Part shown: positions 12,198-64,000 of the stretch, in pieces
Position numbering within the stretch: position 1 is the first letter of the stretch
How the letters are laid out: each line of letters begins with the position of its first letter
Origin: Mustelus asterias
Lineage: Eukaryota
Direction of reading: 5' to 3'
Length of the DNA: 64,000 bases
NCBI RefSeq assembly: GCF_964213995.1
Contig: NC_135804.1
Coordinates: 97,960,001 to 98,024,000 of the forward strand
The notes under the pieces: generated by a model
The model's input: only the letters and a program-made list of their open reading frames with translations
What the model was told of the DNA's origin: nothing
Database searches by the model: none
Position numbers and translations under genes: made by a program

Positions 12198-12515
12198 ATC
12201 ATAGAATCCCTGCAGTGCAGAAGGAGGCCATTCGGCCCATTGAGTCTGCACCGACCACGATCCCATCCAATCCCTATCCCCGTAACCCCACATATTTACC
12301 CTGCTAGTTCTCCTGACACTATGGTCAATTTAGCATGGCCAATCTACCTAACCCGCACATCTTTGGACTGTGGGAGGAAACCGGAGCACTCGGAGGAAAC
12401 CCATGCAGACACAGGGAGAATGTGCAAACTCCACACAGACAGTGACCTGAGGCTGGAATTGAACCCAGGTCCCTGGCACTGTGAGGCAGCAGTTCTAAAC
12501 ACTGTGCCACCATGC
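12198..12515 (-). mobile_element. HE1 SINE with CR1-type tail
   Basis: tRNA-like head at 12515-12450; tail ...GAATGGCCTCCTTCTGCACTGCAGGGATTCTATGATT is shared with CR1 3' ends. Confidence 0.9.
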
Positions 12516-12929
12516 CAATAACAGATCATAAATTATAATTTGACACTAAAATGGCTGCATTTGGAAGGAAAGCCACAAACTGTGTTAAATTGCCAACAGG
12601 AATTAGAGGTAAGATATCTCCTCAACTGTGCATACGTCTTCTCTTTAATTTTTCCCATATCCTCCTTGTCCACCAACTGCATTCTGGAACAGCCATTGAA
12701 CTCCAGATAACATATTAAACAAATCTGTTCATGATTTTCTTGCACCTTCTGTAATGTAGGAATTGAGTTTCTGTGGTATAAGATTTAACTGAATATTATT
12801 TTCCAACTGACATCTATTGAATTAGTTTGTTCATGGTCCTTCAAATATTTTATCACTAAGGGAGGAAATACTTTGCATTTCCTGTTTGAAATGCCTTAGA
12901 GCCCTCAGTGCTTGAGAACAGAATGGTCA

Positions 12930-25827: not shown

Positions 25828-26610
25828 GGGCCCAATTTTACCATTTTGATTCTAAGTGCTGGGTGGATTTGAAACTGGGAGTGTTTCAGATCCAACTTTC
25901 AGACCCGCTCTCAGGAGCCCCCATACACAATCTGCCTGCAAAAATATCAGCAATTCCGAATCTCGCTGCAAAAGCCTGTGGGTGGGGCTTAACGCACCCG
26001 AAACACTTCAGCTCCGATTGGAGCCTCCAACTGCGCGTGTGCAGAAAATAAAACTGATAGAATGCAGCTCCCCTGCCACATCGCTCCTCCTGGCCCCCAC
26101 AGACATTGCCCCACCCCCACAACATTACTGACCCCCTTATCCCCCAGCCACTCTGCCCAGACCGATCACGGGCCCCTCGCCCTCTTCCCCCCACTGATCT
26201 CAGGCAGAGTGGCAGTGGACCCTCCCCACACTGATCTCAGGCAGACTGGCAGCAGATCCCCTCCTTTCCCCTCACTGATCACAGGCAGACTGGCAGCAGA
26301 CCCCCCTCCCATTCCTCCTCACTGATTCCAGGCAGAGTGGCAGCAGACTCCCCTTCCCCCTTACTGATCTCAGGCAGAGTGGCAGCAGACCCCCCTTCCC
26401 CCTTACAGATCTCAGGCAGAGTGGCAGCAGACCCCCCCCCATTCCTCCTCACTGATTTCAGGCAGAGTGGCAGCAGACCCCTCCTCCCCCTCCTCCTCAC
26501 GATCTCAAGCAGAGAGCCATCGGACGCTGGGCACCTACCTCCTCACTAACTGGGGAAGTGCCGGTAAAGTTGGGCATGCGACCATTAAGTCAATTTAAAT
26601 TCATGCATAT
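25828..26610. mobile_element. Non-autonomous Harbinger-like element of the 1290/48796 group, right end missing
   Basis: Starts with the TIR GGGCCCAATTTTACC; 25828-26200 is the reverse complement of 50070-50480. Confidence 0.8.
26190..26518. repeat. Minisatellite, about 7.5 units of 37-48 bp
   Basis: Unit ACTGATCTCAGGCAGAGTGGCAGCAGAC followed by a variable C-rich linker. Confidence 0.9.
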
Positions 26611-53442: not shown

Positions 53443-53723
53443 TAAAGTAAAGTTTATTTATTAATCACAAGTAAGGCTTATATTAACACTGCAATGAAGT
53501 TACTATGAAATTCACCGAGTCGTCACATTCCTGTTCGGGTCAATGCACCTAACCAGCACGTCTTTCAGACTGTGGGAGGAAACTGGAGCCCCAGGAGGAA
53601 ACCCACGCAGACACAGGGAGAACGTGCAAACTCCACACAGACAGTGACCCAAGCTGGGAATCAAACCCGGGTCCCTGGCGCTGTGAGGCAGCAGTGCTAA
53701 CCACAGTGCCACTGTGCCGTCCC
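53443..53723 (-). mobile_element. tRNA-derived SINE, HE1-type head with Rex1-like tail
   Basis: Reverse complement of the 877-1155 type. Confidence 0.88.
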
Positions 53724-54689
53724 TTCAAAAAGTGCTGAGGATAGCCAAAGCTGGTTTTCCTACTACAGATTCTCAACTGGAATGAAAGGTTGTAATTTAG
53801 TTTGTCATTGAGCAAGTTATTTCCATCCATTTGACCTAATCACTTGAGTTGACCTCCTACTAAATGGTTGGCCTTTCCCACTGAATTAGAAATGCTCTAA
53901 AATTAGACTGTAAACATTAATGCACAGAAAAATGTAGCCTTACAAAAGGGTAAGACTTGATATTTTTGGCAATTTTCCCATGCCTGAGCAATCTGTTTGA
54001 CTTACTGAAAGCTTTTGTCTTCACATTCCTGCATCAGACTTGTTATTGGAAATGACCTCAGCCTCCACCCTCATTTCCTAAATGTTGGGTTCTGCAGCTG
54101 CAGGAAGAGGTCCTAAAGCAAACATTTCATGCTGTAATTAAAACAAAGCAGCCAGGACTCCACAGAACTACAAGGCCTCTGATAGCAATAATCATCTGCT
54201 CCCTTGTTTTAAATCTTGAATGTCCTGCAGGAGATGAATTGAATGTTCGTTCTTAACCAGTAGAAAATTATATTAAAGTTTGTACAGAATGTCTCCCAGG
54301 CAGTCATTACCGGACTCATTTAGAAAGCTTTACTCTTACATTTTGGTTGAGTTCCTGAGGTTTTAGTCTGCATCTGAATGTAATTTTATGAATCGTGCAC
54401 AAAACCATTCAGCAAAACCATGAAGAAAGCTACATTTTCTTTTTGTCGTTTCCTTTTACACAAATTCATTCATTCCCAAAACTGTTGAACTGTGTAACTT
54501 TTTACCTTCTTCAGTCTTCCCTCTTTCTCTAATCCAAAGAATTTTAAAATCTAAAGTTAGTGTTATCTATTGGCTGTATGATAAATTCAAGTTTACAGTA
54601 AAGGTGTTCTTACATTCATCATCCTAACTCACCCACTGTAGCAAGTTTATTTTAATGAGTTTGGATAGAACTGCCCTAAAGGTATGTAG

Positions 54690-55610: not shown

Positions 55611-55619
55611 ATTTTCACA

Positions 55620-55751
55620 TTCATAGATCATTGGGAAGTCTTCATGAGAGGATGGCATCTGTACGGAAAGGATGGGTTACACCTTAACTGGAAGGGCACA
55701 AATATCCTGGCTGGGAGTTTTGCGAGAGTGTTTCGGCAGGGTTTAAACTAG
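55620..55751 (+). pseudogene. CR1 ORF1 C-terminus (SGNH esterase-like domain)
   Basis: FIDHWEVF...LYGKDGLHLNWKGTNILAGSFARVFRQGLN*; DGLHLN is the SGNH block V DxxH motif. Confidence 0.8.
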
Positions 55752-58104
55752 TGTGGCAGGAGGGTGGGGATCAAAACAGTAGGTCAGTAAGTACTGAGGC
55801 TGGGGTCAATTTGGGGGCCAGGGCAAGGCTAGCTAAGAAGAAGAGCATTCTGGAGCAGGATGACCTGAGTGGGCCTGGAGGTCTGGAGTGCATCTGCTTC
55901 AATGCGAGGAGCATAACGGGTAAGACAGACGAACTTAGGGCCTTAATGTTTACGCGGAATTTGGATGTGGTTGCGGTGACGGAGACATGGTTAAAAGAAG
56001 GACAGGATTGGCAGCTGAATATTCCGGGGTATAAGTGTTTTAGGCGAGACAGAGGAGGGGCTAAAAAAGGTGGGGGAGTAGCGGTATTAGTTAGGGAGCA
56101 TATTACAGCGGTGCAGAGGGTGGACAATTTTGAGGGGTCATGTAATGAGTCGCTGTGGGTGGAGCTCAGAAACAGGAAAGATGCAGTCACTATGCTGGGG
56201 GTATACTACAGGCCACCCAACAACCCACGGGAAGTGGAGGAATGGATATGTCAGGAGATTCTGGATATGTGCAGAAAAAATAGGGTTGTTGTAGTGGGAG
56301 ACTTCAATTTCCCTGGTATAGACTGGAAAGTGCTTAGGGCCGGGGGTTTGGACGGGGAGGAATTTGTAAAATGCGTACTGGAAGGTTCTTTGGAACAGTA
56401 TGTAGATAGCCCAACTAGAGAGGGGGCTATACTGGATCTAGTTCTGGGAAATGAGCCCGGTCAGGTCGTCAAAGTTTCGGTAGGGGAACATGTGGCAAAT
56501 AGTGACCACAACTCTGTTAACTTTAGGATAGTAATGGACAAGGACAAGTGTTGTCCTAAGGATAGGGTGCTAAATTGGGAGAAGGCTAACTATAGCCGGA
56601 TTAGGCAGGAATTGGTGGCCGTTGATTGGGAGAAGCTGTTTGGGGGTAAGTCCATGTCTGGCATGTGAGAGTCTTTTAAGGAACAGTTGATAAGGCTGCA
56701 GGACAGGCATGTGCCTGTAAAAAAGAAGGATAGGAAAGGTAGGATTCGAGAGCCATGGATAACCAGGGAAATTGAGGATCTGAGGCAACTGAAAACAGAT
56801 GGAGCTCTGGAGGAATACAGAGAGAGTAGGAAAGAACTCAAACCGGGTGTTAGAAGGACAAAAAGAGGTCACGAAATGTTCTTGGCAGACAGGATTAAGG
56901 AGAATCCTAAGGCATTTTATTCATATGTCAGGAACAAAAGAGTTGTCAGGGAAAAAGTCGGACCTCTCAGGGACAAAGGAGGGGAATTATGCTTAGAACT
57001 CAAGGGAATAGGGGAGATCCTAAATGAATACTTTGCATTGGTATTCACAAAAGAGAGGGACTTGTTGACTGGGAGTGTCTCAGAGGGAGGTGTTGACCCA
57101 TTAGAGAGAATCTCCATTACAAGGGACGAAGTGTTAGGTTTTTTAGGTAATATTAAAACTGACAAATCCCCAGGGCCTGATGGCATCTATCCTAGACTGC
57201 TCAGGGAGACAAGAGATGTACATGCTGGGCCTCTGATGGAAATCTTTGTCTCTTCATTGGACACAGGTGAGGTCCCTGAGGATTGGAGGATAGCGAATGT
57301 GGTACCATTATTTAAGAAGGGTAGCAGGGATAACCCGGGTAATTATAGGCCAGTGAGTTTGACGTCCGTGGTAGGGAAGGTGTTGGAGAGAATTCTTAGA
57401 GACAGGATGTATGCGCATTTAGAACGGAACAATCTCATTAGTGACAGACAGCATGGTTTTGTAAGAGGGAGGTCATGCCTTACAAATTTGGTGGAGTTTT
57501 TTGAGGAAGTGACAAAAACTGTTGACGAAGGAAGGGCCGTGGATGTCGTCTATGTGGAGTTCAGTAAGGCATTTGACAAAGTCCCTCATGGCAGGTTGGT
57601 AAGAAGGTTAAGGCTCATGGGATACAAGGAGAGGTGGCTAGATAGATAGAAAACTGGCTTGGCCACAGGAGACAGAGGGTAGCAGTCGAAGGGTCTTTTT
57701 CCAGCTGGAGGTCTGTGACCAGCGGTGTTCCGCAGGGCTCTGTACTGGGACCTCTGCTATTTGTGATATATATAAATGATTTGGAAGAAGGTGCAACTGG
57801 TGTTATTAGCAAGTTTGCGGATGACACGAAGATGGCTGGACTTGCGGATAGCGACGAACATTGTCGGACAATACAGCAGGATATCGATAGGCTGGAAAAT
57901 TGGAGGGAGAAATGGCAGATGGAATTTAATCCAGATAAATGTGAAGTGATGCATTTTGGAAGAACTAATGTAAGGGGGAGTTATACAGTAAATGGCAGAG
58001 CAATCAAGATTATAGAAACACAGAGGGACCTAGGTGTGCAAGTCCACAAATCCTTGGAGGTGGCAGCACAGGTGGAGAAGGTGGTGAAGAAGGCATATGG
58101 TATG
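55742..58104 (+). pseudogene. CR1 ORF2 (APE endonuclease and reverse transcriptase), disrupted; C-terminus continues at 63037-63520
   Basis: CFNARS, VTETW, YYRPP, GDFN, LDLV, SDH; NYRPVSLTS, QHGF, PQGSVLGP, FADD. Stop at 56666-56668 and a frameshift near 57600. Confidence 0.92.
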
Positions 58105-58420
58105 TGATGCGCTACTCAAACACGAAGCCTGAAGCTCGGTAAATGAAAGGCTTTTATTTACTGTAATGAAGCAGCCAGTAATTATATACACTATCCCAGA
58201 CTGAAGGGGTCCCGGCCAGAGCAGGGACTCTTATACCTCTCCCAGGAGGCGGAGCCCGACTGGGATGTGCCACAACACTACAGTACAAAGGTGTAACAAA
58301 CCCACCCTAACCCCAACAGCAACAATAGCACAACCCAACAGTAACATATGTACATTCTTGTAGTACTGGCCAGACCCTGGCTCAGTACTATCCAGTGGGA
58401 ACCAACGATGGTTCACCACA
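58105..58420 (-). repeat. 3' LTR
   Basis: Direct repeat of 62716-63031 with 3 substitutions by manual comparison. Confidence 0.97.
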
Positions 58421-58434
58421 TTCACCCCTCCTTT
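58421..58434 (-). promoter_or_regulatory. Polypurine tract
   Basis: Minus strand AAAGGAGGGGTGAA immediately before the 3' LTR. Confidence 0.85.
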
Positions 58435-58482
58435 GAGAACAAAGGCCGGCGAGGTACAAAAACAGAATAAAGTGTCAGTAGT

Positions 58483-61400
58483 CTATAAGTTCAGACGGTC
58501 AGGGGGACCGCACCGTTGTTGTGACCTCCTCAATACCGGCGGTGACACCGGAGTAGGCACTTGCGGTGACGTTCTCCCCAAGGCGGCGTCCAGCTGTTCT
58601 TCCACAGACTCACAGGCCGGTTGACCCTGAGGTGACGGTAGTCCATGGGATCCGGACACGCCCTGCAGTGGCGACCATCTTCTGGGCTCAGGCAAGCTGT
58701 ATATGGGAGTAAAATGGTTAAGCAATGGTCCCGATGCTGCCCGCGCCGTGTCCGGGGAAGAAACAAGAGATAAAGGGTTTGTAACAGGGGGTATGGGAGC
58801 GACAGGGGTTGCTACGTCCCCTGCTGGCACCAGGTCTCGGATCGAGACCGTATCCTCTCGCCCGTCAGGGTATGCCACATAGGCATACTGAGGGTTGGCG
58901 TGGAGGTGGCGTGGCCTGTTCAACCAACGGGTCGGACTTGCGGGCCCTTACATGTCGCCACAGGAGGACGGGTCCTGAGTACGTCAACCAAGACGGTAAT
59001 GAGGTCCCCGAGGAAGACTTCCGAGGGAATGAAAACATCCTCTCGTGGGGAGTAGCATTGGTTGCCGTACACAGGAGGGATCGAATAGAATGGAGCGCAT
59101 CAGAGAGCACCTCTTGCCAACGGGAGACTGGAAGACCTTTTGACTTCAACGCCAGTAAGACAGCCTTCCAGACTGTAGCATTCTCACGTTCCACCTGTCC
59201 GTTACCCCTATGGTTGTAGCTTGTGGTCCTACTAGAGGCAATCCCGTATGAGAGCAGGAATTGCCTCAAGTCATCGCTCATGAACGACGAGCCCCTGTCG
59301 CTATGGATGTAGCCGGGGTACCCGAACAGGGTAAAGAGATCACGGAATGCCTTGATAACCGTGGCAGCGGATGTATCCGAGCAGGGAACAACAAAAGGGA
59401 ACCGAGAGTACTCGTCAATGATATTGAGGAAGTACACATTCCGATCTGTTGAGGGAAGGGGGCCCTTAAAATCGACACTCAGTCTCTCGAAGGGACGAGT
59501 GGCCTTGACTAAATGTGCCCGGTCAGGTCGGTAAAAGTGCGGTTTGCATTCCGCGCAAACCCGACAGCTCCTTGTTACTGACCTGACGTCCTCCACCGAG
59601 TAAGGCAGGTTGCGGGCTTTTATGAAGTGGTAGAGCCGAGTGACCCCAGGATGGCATAGGTCATTATGGAGGGCCTGCAAACGGTCCTCCTGCATACTAG
59701 CGCATGTTCCACGCGAGAGGGCATCCGAGGGCTCATTGAGTTTCCCTGGACGGTACATGATGTCGTAGTTATAGGTGGAGAGTTCAATTCTCCACCGCAA
59801 GATCTTGTCATTCTTGATCTTGCCCCACTGCGTGTTGTTAAACATGAACGCCACGGACCGCTGGTCTGTGATCAGGGTGAACCATTTTCCCGCCAAGTAA
59901 TGTCGCCAGTACCTGACAGCCTCCACAATGGCCTGGGCCTCCTTTTCCACCGCTGAATGCCGAATTTCGGGGCCTCGGAGGGTGCGGGAAAAAAATGCGA
60001 CGGGCCTGCCCGCCTGGTTAAGTGTGGCGGCCAGGGCGAAATCAGATGCATCGCTCTCCACCTGAAAGGGGATGGACTCGTCTACCGCGTGCATCGTAGC
60101 TTTCGCGATGTCGTCTTTCAATTTCTCGAAGGCCAATCGGGCCTCTGGCGTTAGGGGAAAAGTCGTGGACTTAATGAGCGGACGGGCTTTGTCCGCGTAG
60201 CTGGGAACCCACTGCGCATAATAAGAGAAGAAGCCTAAGCATCTTCTCGGTGCTTTTGCACTAGCAGGCAAGGGAAGTTCAGAAAGGGGGCGCATACGGT
60301 CTGGATCAGGGCCAATGACCCCGTTTTCCACCACGTATCCTAGGATGGCTAAACGGCACGTACGAAACACACACTTCTCCCTGTTGTAGGTCAAGTCCAG
60401 GCGAGATGCAGTGCGTAGGAAGTTCAGGAGATTCGTGTCGTGGTCCTGCTGGTCATGGCTGCAGATGGTGACATTATCCAGGTACGGGAAGGTAGCCTGC
60501 AGCCCGTTCTGGTCCACCATTCGGTCCATAGCACGCTGGAAGACCGAGACCCCGTTGGTGACACCAAGGGAACCCTGAGAAAGTGATACAAGCGACCATC
60601 CGCCTCAAAAGCCGTGTATTGTCGGTCCTCTGGGCGAATGGGGAGTTGGTGGTAGGCAGACTTGAGGTCTATGGTGGAGAACACCCGGTACTACGCAATT
60701 TGATTGACCATATCAGATATGCGCGGGAGAGGATACGCATCCAGCTGCGTATATCGCTTAATGGTCTGACTGTAGTCAATGACCATCCGGGGTTTGTTCC
60801 CGCTCTTGACCACCACTACCTGCGCTCTCCACGGACTAGCGCTGGGTTGTATGATCCTTTCTTTGAGGAGCCGCTGAACCTCAGATCTAATGAAGATCCG
60901 ATCCTCAGCACTGTAACGCCTACTTTTAGTCGCGATGGGCTTGCAGCCTGGCACAAGATTCTGGAACAAGGAGGGTGTGGTGATCTTCAGCGTCGAGAGG
61001 CTGCAGGCGGGGCGCGTTGGGCAATTTGGAGGCTGCTGCTGTTTTCCCACTGCCAGTGAAGGGAGTGGCCCACCGTACTGTAGGATTACACTCCTCAAGT
61101 GGACCATAAAGTTTAGTCCGAGAAGTATTGGCGCGCAAAGATACGGCAACACGAGGAGCTTGAAATGCTCGTAAACTGTGCTTTGCACCTTCAAGGTTAC
61201 CAAGCAACTCCCTCGCATGGCAACAGACCGGGACCTTGATGCCATAGAGATTGTCTGTTTGGCAGGTTGAATCTGGAGTCCACACCGCTTCACAGTGTCT
61301 GGGTGGATAAAGCTCTCAGTGCTCCCGCTGTCAAACAGACAATAAATCACGTGGTCATTTACCTGGATATTCATCATAGATTTGTCAAGTCTATGAGGCT

Positions 61401-62667
61401 TGGCCTGCTCCAGGATGATCGACGCCACCGTTGGTTCATGAGCGCCACTGCAGGCAGCTGAAATCGATGAGGAGGACCCCTGCTGGTCGTTCGTGGTCAG
61501 TGTCGACCAACATGGCCGCTTCCATGAGTCGCACGTGGGTGAGGGCGCCAAACTCAGCGACCCCTGGTGGTCACACACCTCCGACTCCGTCGACCGTAAT
61601 GGCGTCGTCTTGGCCTCGCACGTGGACGAACTCCTCGATGACTTCGACGACGAAGACCCGAGCTCTGAAGAATCGCAGGCCGCACTGCCGTTCCTGGGAT
61701 TAGATCGGCACACTTTCGAATAGTGCCCTTTTTTACCGCATGCAGTGCACAACACAGCTTTAGCGGGACACCGTTGCCGAGTATCATAGAAATCATAGAA
61801 ACCCTACAGTGCAGAAGGAGGCCATTCGGCCCATCGAGTCTGCACCGACCACAATCCCACCCAGGCCCTACCCCGACATATTTACCCGCTAATCCCTCTA
61901 ACGTACACATCCTAGGACTCTAATGGGCAATTTTTAACCTGGCCAATCAACCTAACCCGCACATCTTTGGACTGTGGGTGCTTCGCTCCCCCACAGAAAT
62001 AGCACCGCGGGCCGCCCGGGGCTGCTGCCGTCGTCTGGCCCGAGTGTGAGCACGCCATTACGCAGTATTTCGAACCCGAGGGACGAGGAGGGATTGGCGA
62101 CTGCTCCTGCCACGTTGTCTCCACATGGTCCTCCGGATATAATACTAAGCTTTAGGAGGCCGTCTCGAGCATCTCCGCCAGCTCGATGGCCTGGGTAAGA
62201 TCAAGGTTACCCTTCTCCAACAGTTTAAGTCGAATGTACGACGATCCGACCCCCGCCACAAACGCATCTCGGGCGAGGTCGTTCATGCTCTGCTCAGCCG
62301 ACACAGCTTTGCAGTTACAGCCCCTGGCTAGCTGTAGGAGCTCGTTCGCATATTCCTCCATCGTTTCGCCAGACTGCCGTCATCGAGTGGCTAGGAGGTA
62401 ACGAGCGTGTATCTCATTAGGTGGTTTGATATAACGCTTCTTCAGAAGCTCGAGGGCCTTAGTATAATTGGTGGCCGCACGGATCACGAGGTAGACAGTG
62501 TCGCTTACCCTCGCATGGAGGACCCAGAGTCTGTCATCATCTGTGGTGACCGCTGCGGAGGCTGCCAGGTAGTCTTCGAAACACTTCAGCCAGTGGTCGA
62601 AGGTGTTAGAAGCGCCCACCGCACGTGGATCTAGTGTAAGGCGTTCCAGCTTCAGGATTTGCTCCAT
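58483..62667 (-). pseudogene. Gypsy gag-pol polyprotein, disrupted by stops, frameshifts and a SINE
   Basis: Starts MEQILKLERLTLDP; knuckles CYFCGGAKH and CTACGKKGHYSKVC; protease LFDSGS; RT YLDNV; RNase H ESDAS; integrase H..LCHPG...CRVC, VDFKGP, HSDRG, NGQVER; ends RRSQQRCGPPDRLNL*. Stops at about 62380, 62152 and 60691; frameshifts near 60565 and 58915. Confidence 0.95.
61784..61978 (-). mobile_element. 5'-truncated HE1 SINE inserted in the gag zinc-knuckle region
   Basis: Nearly identical to the 3' half of 63521-63874; tail (ATTTCTATG)n; splits AKH|TRQRCPA. Confidence 0.9.
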
Positions 62668-62715
62668 ACTCTCTTTTTTTTTCTTCGACGAGAGTTTAAC
62701 GACAGTAAATAAAAT

Positions 62716-63031
62716 TGATGTGCTACTCAAACACGAAGCCTGAAGCTCGGTAAATGAAAGGCTTTTATTTACTGTAATGAAGCAGCCAGTAATTATATAC
62801 ACTATCCCAGACTGAAGGGGTCCCGGCCAGAGCAGGGACTCTTATACCTCTCCCAGGAGGCGGAGCCCGACTGGGATGTGCCACAACACTACAGTACAAA
62901 GGTGTAACAACCCCACCCTAACCCCAACAGCAACAATAGCACAACCCAACAGTAACATATGTACATCCTTGTAGTACTGGCCAGACCCTGGCTCAGTACT
63001 ATCCAGTGGGAACCAACGATGGTTCACCACA
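62716..63031 (-). repeat. 5' LTR
   Basis: TGTGGTGAACC...TAGCACATCA; contains TATAAGAG, TTCAGT, TATATAA and AATAAA on the element's sense strand. Confidence 0.97.
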
Positions 63032-63520
63032 GTATGCTTGCTTTTATAGGATGGGGTATAGAATATAAAAGCTGGAGTCTGATGTTGCAGCTGTATACTA
63101 CGCTGGTTAGGCCACATTTGGAGTACTGCGTCCAGTTCTGGTCGCCGCACTACCAGAAGGACGTGGAGGCTTTAGAGAGAGTGCAGAGAAGGTTTATAAG
63201 AATGTTGCCTGGTATGGAGGGCCTTAGCTATGAGGAGAGATTGGGTAAACTGGGCTTGTTCTCCCTGGAAAGATGGAGAATGAGGGGAGACCTAATAGAG
63301 ATGTACAAAATTATGAAGGGTATAGATAGGGTGAACAGTGGGAAGCTTTTTCCCAGGTCGGAGGTGACGACCACGAGGGGTCACAGGCTCAAGGTGAGAG
63401 GGGTGAGGTATAACTCAGATATCAGAGGGACGTTTTTTACACAGAGAGTGGTGGGGTCCTGGAATGCGCTGTCAAGTAGGGTGGTGGAGGCAGACACGCT
63501 GGCATCGTTTAAGACTTACC

Positions 63521-63874
63521 TTAGAAATCTTAGAAATCTTAGAAACCCTACAGCACAGAGAAAGGCCATTCGGCCCATCGAGTCTGCACCGACCACAATC
63601 CCACCCAGACCCTACCCCCATATCCCTACATATTTACCCACTAATCCCTCTAACCTACGCATCCCAGGACACTAAGGGCAATTTTAGCATGGCCAATCAA
63701 CCTAATCCGCACATCTTTGGACTGTGGGAGGAAACCGGAGCACCCGGAGGAAACCCACGCAGACACGAGGAGAATGTGCAAACTCCACACAGACAGTGAC
63801 CCAAGCCGGGAATCGAACCCAGGTCCCTGGAGCTGTGAAGCAGCAGTGCTAACCACTGTGCTACCGTGCCGCCC
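63521..63874 (-). mobile_element. Full-length young HE1 SINE (CR1-type tail)
   Basis: Head GGGCGGCACGGTAGCACAGTGGTTAGC, B box GGTTCGATTCC, tail (ATTTCTAAG)n; splits CR1 KTYL|DSHM. Confidence 0.93.
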
Positions 63875-64000
63875 CTGGATAGTCACATGAGCAGTCTGGG
63901 AATGTAGGGATACAAACGAATGGTCTAGTGGGACCAATGAGCGGCACAGGCTTGGAGGGCTGAAGGGCCTGTTTCCTGTGCTGTCCTGTTCTTTGTTCTT

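Follow-up and report, generated by a model that had tools for sequence, protein, structure and literature searches.

The window, by which we mean the whole 64,000-nucleotide stretch of Mustelus asterias DNA analysed here, contains on its forward strand a copy of a CR1 LINE that later insertions have split (Table 1). By blastn it is 93–94% identical to its sister copies, and it starts inside ORF1, which marks it as 5′-truncated. The copy is dead, with an internal stop at 56666–56668 and a frame break near 57646. Its 45-aa ORF1 remnant alone gave no Pfam match; homologs of the family's ORF1 carry PF13472, those with a species name being from rays and sharks, and the ORF1 of a sister family matches PDB 4c1b with an E value of 2e-21. 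For ORF2, Pfam returned PF03372 (Exo_endo_phos, the match starting at 55898), PF14529 and PF00078, that is, an APE endonuclease followed by a reverse transcriptase (RT), and a phmmer comparison of the endonuclease with the PDB found only weak L1 endonuclease matches (E 0.02) with the N-terminus uncovered. Short-tandem-repeat 3′ tails of the (GTTCTAT)n type occur in a sister family. With its APE–RT ORF2, SGNH esterase ORF1, repeat tail and 5′ truncation, the window element is a CR1-group LINE of the esterase type; the CR1 label in the strict sense is our assumption, taken from domain content and homolog names.

Several other repeats surround or interrupt this copy. A Gypsy-type LTR retrotransposon on the reverse strand (58105–63031; RT, RNase H and integrase by Pfam) sits within the RT region of the CR1; its two TG...CA LTRs are nearly identical, and the target site is duplicated over 5 bp (GTATG). 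A common SINE-like repeat (63541–63873), with relatives at 12199–12516, 53538–53725 and elsewhere, is inserted in its 3′ part. The window further holds a G-rich tandem repeat at 26190–26510 on the reverse strand, with a unit of about 35–40 nt.

Table 1. The CR1 copy of the window, its ORF1/ORF2 junction and the junction of an older family (positions counted from the first letter of the window)
Feature	Position	Strand	Evidence or remark
5′-truncated CR1 LINE copy, 5′ piece	55613–58104	+	ORF1 tail, junction, APE, most of RT; blastn, ORFs, Pfam
ORF1 remnant, SGNH esterase C-terminus, ends GLN-stop	55614–55751	+	translation; DGLHL at 55671
−1-frame TAG of sister copies	55724–55726	+	GAG in window copy; TAG in 24/29 sister copies
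Overlapping G_GGT_TTA, ORF1 phase	55739–55745	+	present in window copy; unconserved across lineages
Slippery heptamer T_TTA_AAC, ORF1 phase	55742–55748	+	
ORF1 stop immediately 3′ of heptamer	55749–55751	+	TAG in window copy; TAA, TGA in other families
Stop-free −1-frame linker, slip site to endonuclease	55752–55894	+	
G-rich element at fixed offset, putative unstructured stimulator	55755–55769	+	
APE endonuclease domain of ORF2	55895–56509	+	Pfam PF03372, E 4.6e-17, from profile position 3
3′ remainder of window CR1 copy	63032–64000 (63032–63521, then 63874 onward)	+	separated by two later insertions
Decayed junction of older CR1 family, GCT TTA AGT TAA	29998–30009	−	

At the junction, the window reads at 55737–55751, as the original prediction had it, CAG GGT TTA AAC TAG, with two heptamers in the ORF1 phase, and the −1 frame assigned there to ORF2 (TTT AAA CTA GTG TGG) is indeed open into the Exo_endo_phos match. 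The first in-frame ATG does lie beyond the CFNARS motif (codons 52–57), but it is codon 69 (55946), within the APE domain, rather than the codon of about 65 that had been given. The G-rich stretch placed some 6 nt past the heptamer is GGCAGGAGGGTGGGG, found exactly 6 nt after it; its A is a minority variant, most of 30 fetched copies having GGCAGGGGGGTGGGG. Among the 30 copies nearest to the window CR1, 29 have TTTAAACTAG, a count that is circular as a measure of conservation because the copies were picked by similarity to a query containing the heptamer; in 25 of these 29 the first Met is codon 69. As the −1-frame TAG of most sister copies stands only five codons before the heptamer, the overlap of ORF1 and ORF2 barely exceeds the heptamer itself. 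The decayed equivalent reported for an older CR1 in the window is present as described, and among the relatives of that element TTTAAAC is kept in 9 of 19, the rest differing by scattered substitutions as read from the alignment.

The conservation of the site can be judged without this circularity from copies that were located, genome-wide and at a fixed gap, by an upstream anchor that excludes the heptamer and by a stop pattern of TRR. In this set, which is dominated by a few families, 15,234 of 15,690 copies (97.1%) spell x-Leu-Asn-stop as T TTA AAC; reversed-pattern controls of the count gave 0 matches, and such a share of in-phase heptamers among copies found by a heptamer-free anchor exceeds chance. 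A pattern for the esterase motif DGLHLNxxGTN, with its end 40 nt upstream, has 6,521 matches, and among the first 30 of them TTTAAAC stands right before the in-frame stop in 24, the other six showing indels or decay.

Codons were then compared across 15 lineages, namely 8 families of at least three loci, obtained by clustering 112 of 130 loci from the shark's own genome (the 18 lacking the anchor were dropped), and 7 hand-picked singletons, a set that omits window-family singletons and most old decayed copies. These lineages have a mean identity of 67% over the 69 nt upstream. The residue preceding Leu is G, S, D or T, yet the third base of its codon is T in 15/15 lineages, while GGT occurs in only 9/15, and the overlapping G_GGU_UUA that the original prediction had pointed out is rejected as a conserved site. 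The Leu of the heptamer is TTA in 14/14 lineages and the Asn is AAC in 14/14; invariant Leu columns upstream use four to five codons and Asn columns use both, TTA and AAC account for 14/111 Leu and 9/41 Asn codons in an intact copy, and the ORF1 stop varies among TAG, TAA and TGA. One upstream Phe column is likewise invariant (TTT in 13/13), a reminder that the lineages are related. The slippery site in CR1 junctions is a real and strongly conserved signal, and TTTAAAC, its phase and the −1 offset are conserved beyond amino-acid need.

The relation between the two frames is kept as well. From the heptamer to the Asn of the APE motif, the modal distances of the families are 129, 141, 144/150, 144, 153, 159, 162 and 189 nt, all eight being multiples of three; 159 nt is found in 34/38 copies. 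The −1 frame is maintained in 74 of 87 measurable copies, the 25 of 112 loci without heptamer or APE motif having been excluded from this test. The commonest copy pattern has no −1-frame stop and several stops in each of the other frames in seven of the eight families, and the eighth is represented by a single measurable copy with one −1-frame stop. In the youngest family, natural copies with a complete ORF1 of 309 aa and a complete ORF2 of 959 aa share the −1 junction, which is therefore no artefact of decay. As a separate observation, the CR1 family of L153–L163 is very young and rich in intact ORF2s; the length of its G homopolymer past the slip site differs among copies and breaks the frame in 3 of 12. 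L163 contains head-to-tail copies about 4 kb apart.

More distant relatives retain the pattern of the heptamer in other letters. A pattern for the esterase core, about 300 nt upstream of the junction, returned 22 loci: 4 are chance matches, 9 are cut or decayed before the junction, 7 have TGA-C and 2 have G GGA AAC TAG. In the last two (metagenome loci L092 and L099) this is the end of ORF1 and a G-run follows; L099 has an open −1 frame of 499 aa with 31% identity to the shark ORF2, its first Met at 64 and its APE motif at 72. The alternative heptamer G_GGA_AAC is known as DNA from these two loci only. At the matching place in 126 esterase proteins the dipeptide is LN in 73, GN in 13, KN in 10, FF in 6, FL in 3 and none of these in 21, so that a slippery dipeptide, from a set picked after inspecting the data, is present in 105/126 proteins against 13% of background windows. 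The residue before LN allows a T-ending codon in 72/73 proteins; Gln, which has no such codon, precedes LN in 0/73 and GN in 10/13. In many KN proteins the stop comes about ten codons further on, and the dipeptide is thus not just the C-terminal end. LN, GN and KN at these remote ORF1 ends appear to correspond to the shiftiest known heptamers, as listed in PMC5009743. The dipeptide classes require 24 changes on an esterase tree built by a quick method, against 49.7 when shuffled, which shows kinship and not co-evolution.

The KN, FF and FL classes and all amniote cases are known from protein alone. Turtle and monitor-lizard ORF1s end RRALN and KTLN, and FKLDSK occurs in the ORF2 frame of five gene models from storks, of which three run on to YTNARS 95 residues further along; taken together across species, the stork reading and the amniote RALN ending would imply T TTA AAY. 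Alignment-based scans of viral contigs gave no match to the DNA of distant relatives, broad alignments offered no conserved stretch suitable for such a scan, and amniote junction DNA was absent from the supplements searched, namely two files of PMC4316615 (with matches only to ORF2) and one file each of PMC8665684 and PMC6523648. A natural single-ORF fusion family, sought among longer proteins, gave 24 matches that are gene-model chimeras, none clearly natural. Two sets of database records deserve separate mention. Vertebrate gene models P0193, P0194, P0205, P0207 and P0208–P0214 combine host genes with parts of the CR1 esterase or of ORF2, in many cases through a predicted splice site at the CR1 junction, and are likely annotation artefacts. 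P0010, an “SGNH/GDSL hydrolase” of Pseudomonas aeruginosa that is 55% identical to the shark-type ORF1 and ends GLN, is probably host contamination of that record.

Considering these patterns, we propose, with a probability of roughly 0.85, that esterase-type CR1s make ORF2 by −1 ribosomal frameshifting, as an ORF1–APE–RT fusion. Most ribosomes would terminate after ORF1 and set ORF1p free, and only a few would slip one base back on U_UUA_AAC with the Leu and Asn tRNAs in place, read CUA as the next codon and continue into an esterase–APE–RT fusion, of sequence ...GLN/LVWQ... in the window family. In the youngest family the fusion would read ...GLN/LIRG and be about 1,266 aa long. The rarity of slippage would set a low ratio of ORF2 to ORF1 products, as in gag-pol. 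Slippage of two tRNAs would give ...QGLN/LVWQ, and the QGFK variant listed beside it in the original prediction would be a conceptual −1 reading only. As a prediction from sequence comparison, −1 frameshifting passes the tests of synonymous invariance, frame, stop-free linker and heptamer switch in distant relatives. Of the canonical features of such sites, the in-phase X_XXY_YYZ, the open −1 frame and covarying heptamers were found; a structured stimulator 5–9 nt downstream was not. In Rous sarcoma virus, too, the stop follows immediately after the heptamer.

The chief alternative, which we regard as improbable, is that ORF2 is translated separately by termination and reinitiation, from a codon that overlaps the ORF1 stop or from one within the linker (AUG or near-cognate), in the manner of SART1 and L1. 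Both elements offer precedents, and the UAAUG type of geometry produces a −1 offset too (PMC5972666). In CR1, an AUG overlapping the ORF1 stop is not a general feature: TRATG occurs in 471 of 15,234 copies, mostly of one subfamily, and in 2/15 lineages, and is absent from the window copy. The codon overlapping the stop is Val, Ile or Met in 11/15 lineages, but Asp or Asn in 4/15. The subfamily of 471 copies (L173–L178), where TTTAAAC is followed by TAATG and slippery site and stop–start signal thus stand together, could be a natural case in which both mechanisms operate. Two of the eight families have an in-frame Met ahead of the APE motif (at codon 21 in 9/9 copies of the youngest, and in 3/4 copies of another), as do L099 and, in the linker, the stork models, so the absence of an AUG is not a rule; six of the eight families mostly lack such a Met. 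Its position is unconserved, however, and reinitiation would leave unexplained the invariance of T_TTA_AAC, the switch to G_GGA_AAC and the open in-frame linker upstream of the youngest family's Met.

A change of frame at the RNA level, through polymerase slippage in a T/A run or through splicing to an AG before the heptamer, seems less probable again. The T/A runs are just 3 nt long, and any base added to the transcript would become permanent in the copies made from it by retrotransposition, whereas young intact copies retain the −1 offset. Splicing draws some support from the five stork models, which begin an exon at FKLDSK directly after S, the predictor having chosen the AG before the heptamer, and from the CAG that stands immediately before GGT TTA in the window family; yet some lineages have no such AG, and purines dominate the tract upstream. 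Three contig runs, whose RNA label is a guess, cross the junction without joint or indel, with the proviso that contigs drop rare forms. Least probable of all is that the site persists without any recoding, either by common descent or because both of the overlapping frames (Leu-Asn and Phe-Lys-Leu) are constrained at the protein level. Overlapping frames do freeze third positions, and the lineages are related. But selection on Phe-Lys requires translation, and no start lies upstream, the −1 frame being closed five codons earlier in most families; distant relatives switch both dipeptides, to Gly-Asn and Gly-Lys, with X_XXY_YYZ retained.

If −1 frameshifting is the mechanism, what stimulates it? 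Bare heptamers without a stimulator usually shift poorly. In CR1, the first GGG lies at +11 in 10/14 lineages and at +7 to +13 in 14/14, an offset that corresponds to the ribosome's mRNA entrance, and the Gly codons of the G-run are GGG in 13/13 and 10/11 cases, against 33% elsewhere. A local stem-loop was rejected, as nine downstream regions folded for a stem-loop or pseudoknot-like stem were no better than shuffles (z −1.58 to +1.75); a search of 20 long loci for a long-range complement to the G-run found none conserved, only scattered matches of 8–10 nt in unrelated places. The G-quadruplex suggested by the original prediction fails as a universal stimulator, since even the two-tier pattern is missing in 5/14 lineages: it is present in most copies of five of the eight families and in half the copies of one, in 0/10 copies of one family and 0/4 of another, and is missing in 3/6 singletons. 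A three-tier pattern was seen in two copies only. In some families a quadruplex is possible. The evidence leans weakly towards an unstructured G-run that works through protein binding or pausing and is aided by the neighbouring stop codon, rather than towards a quadruplex or a stem-loop. Arterivirus (PRRSV) frameshifting employs a short, unstructured, C-rich motif about 10 nt past the slip site that is bound by a complex of viral and host proteins. The CR1 element resembles it in being short, unstructured and near +10, and differs in being G-rich and in having a hypothetical binder.

The seven TGA-C loci mentioned above (L085, L086, L087, L089, L093, L097 and L098) are ZfL2-1-like esterase LINEs, presumably L2; L093 matches PDB 4c1b with an E value of 1e-29. 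In all seven the intact end of ORF1 reads TGA with a C after it (CAA, CAT or CTA), and ORF2 lies in the same frame, which is open for 494–496 aa in the five long loci; in L086 and L098 the first Met lies past the APE motif. These junctions are candidates for stop-codon readthrough; reinitiation has reportedly been proposed for ZfL2-1. The ZfL2-1 esterase ORF1p (PDB 4c1b; PMC3905857) is homologous to CR1 ORF1, and ORF2 follows in frame after TGA-C in the closer relatives of ZfL2-1, unlike the −1 overlap of CR1. A wider reading, tentative and in our view rather less than an even bet, is that, throughout the animals, LINEs with an esterase obtain ORF2 solely by recoding, as a Gag-Pol-like fusion to ORF1. 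CR1 would rely on an old −1 frameshift whose heptamers have swapped among U_UUA_AAC, G_GGA_AAC and A_AAA_AAC and whose driver, an unstructured G-run, would be a new class of stimulator; the ZfL2-1-like branch would rely on UGA-C readthrough.

Among known systems, the closest in form are retroviral gag-pol and coronavirus (IBV) 1a/1b, which share with CR1 an X_XXY_YYZ site and the fusion of a structural to a polymerase ORF; U_UUA_AAC is itself the IBV slip site (PMC5009743). CR1 differs in having no detected downstream pseudoknot or stem-loop and in being a non-LTR element. By its sequence features, the CR1 junction would work like retroviral −1 frameshifting minus the structured stimulator. 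Among LINEs, Dictyostelium TRE5-A and TRE3-A are two-ORF, APE-type elements whose ORF2 is said to need a −1 frameshift (PMC5911963); they are amoebal, target tRNA genes and have another ORF1, without an esterase. A frameshift with a pseudoknot is present in ORF1 of some Penelope-like elements (PMC8557442). L1 and SART1 share with CR1 a bicistronic LINE RNA and a low ORF2 output, SART1 UAAUG even having the same −1 geometry (PMC5972666), but they produce free ORF2p by restart and are not known to have a slippery heptamer.

A proposal of CR1 frameshifting was not found in the literature listings searched, a search that did not extend to Haas 1997, Kajikawa 1997/2012, Kapitonov and Jurka 2003 or the Repbase reports. 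The covered parts of PMC11835228, PMC4255032, PMC9004415, PMC5006619 and PMC8665684 contain nothing relevant to it, and that of the esterase paper, PMC3905857, does not mention frameshifting. PMC5009743, in its covered part, attributes LINE ORF2 to unusual initiation without mentioning CR1, and in 2016 described natural use of G-quadruplexes in frameshifting as “not currently known”.

How LINEs translate ORF2 is a question of long standing, and the main answers so far are the reinitiation models of L1 and SART1. CR1 is the dominant chicken repeat, at 11.8% of the genome (PMC11835228), and is abundant in the present host genome, with at least 15,000 junction copies. If the frameshift proposal is true, the active CR1 enzyme would be an esterase–APE–RT fusion. 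This would account for CR1 ORF2 being often annotated without a start, and would correct ORF2 annotation and reporter design. The known cellular −1 frameshift sites would then be joined by the CR1 junctions, a natural collection of great size in which something other than a stem-loop acts as the stimulator.
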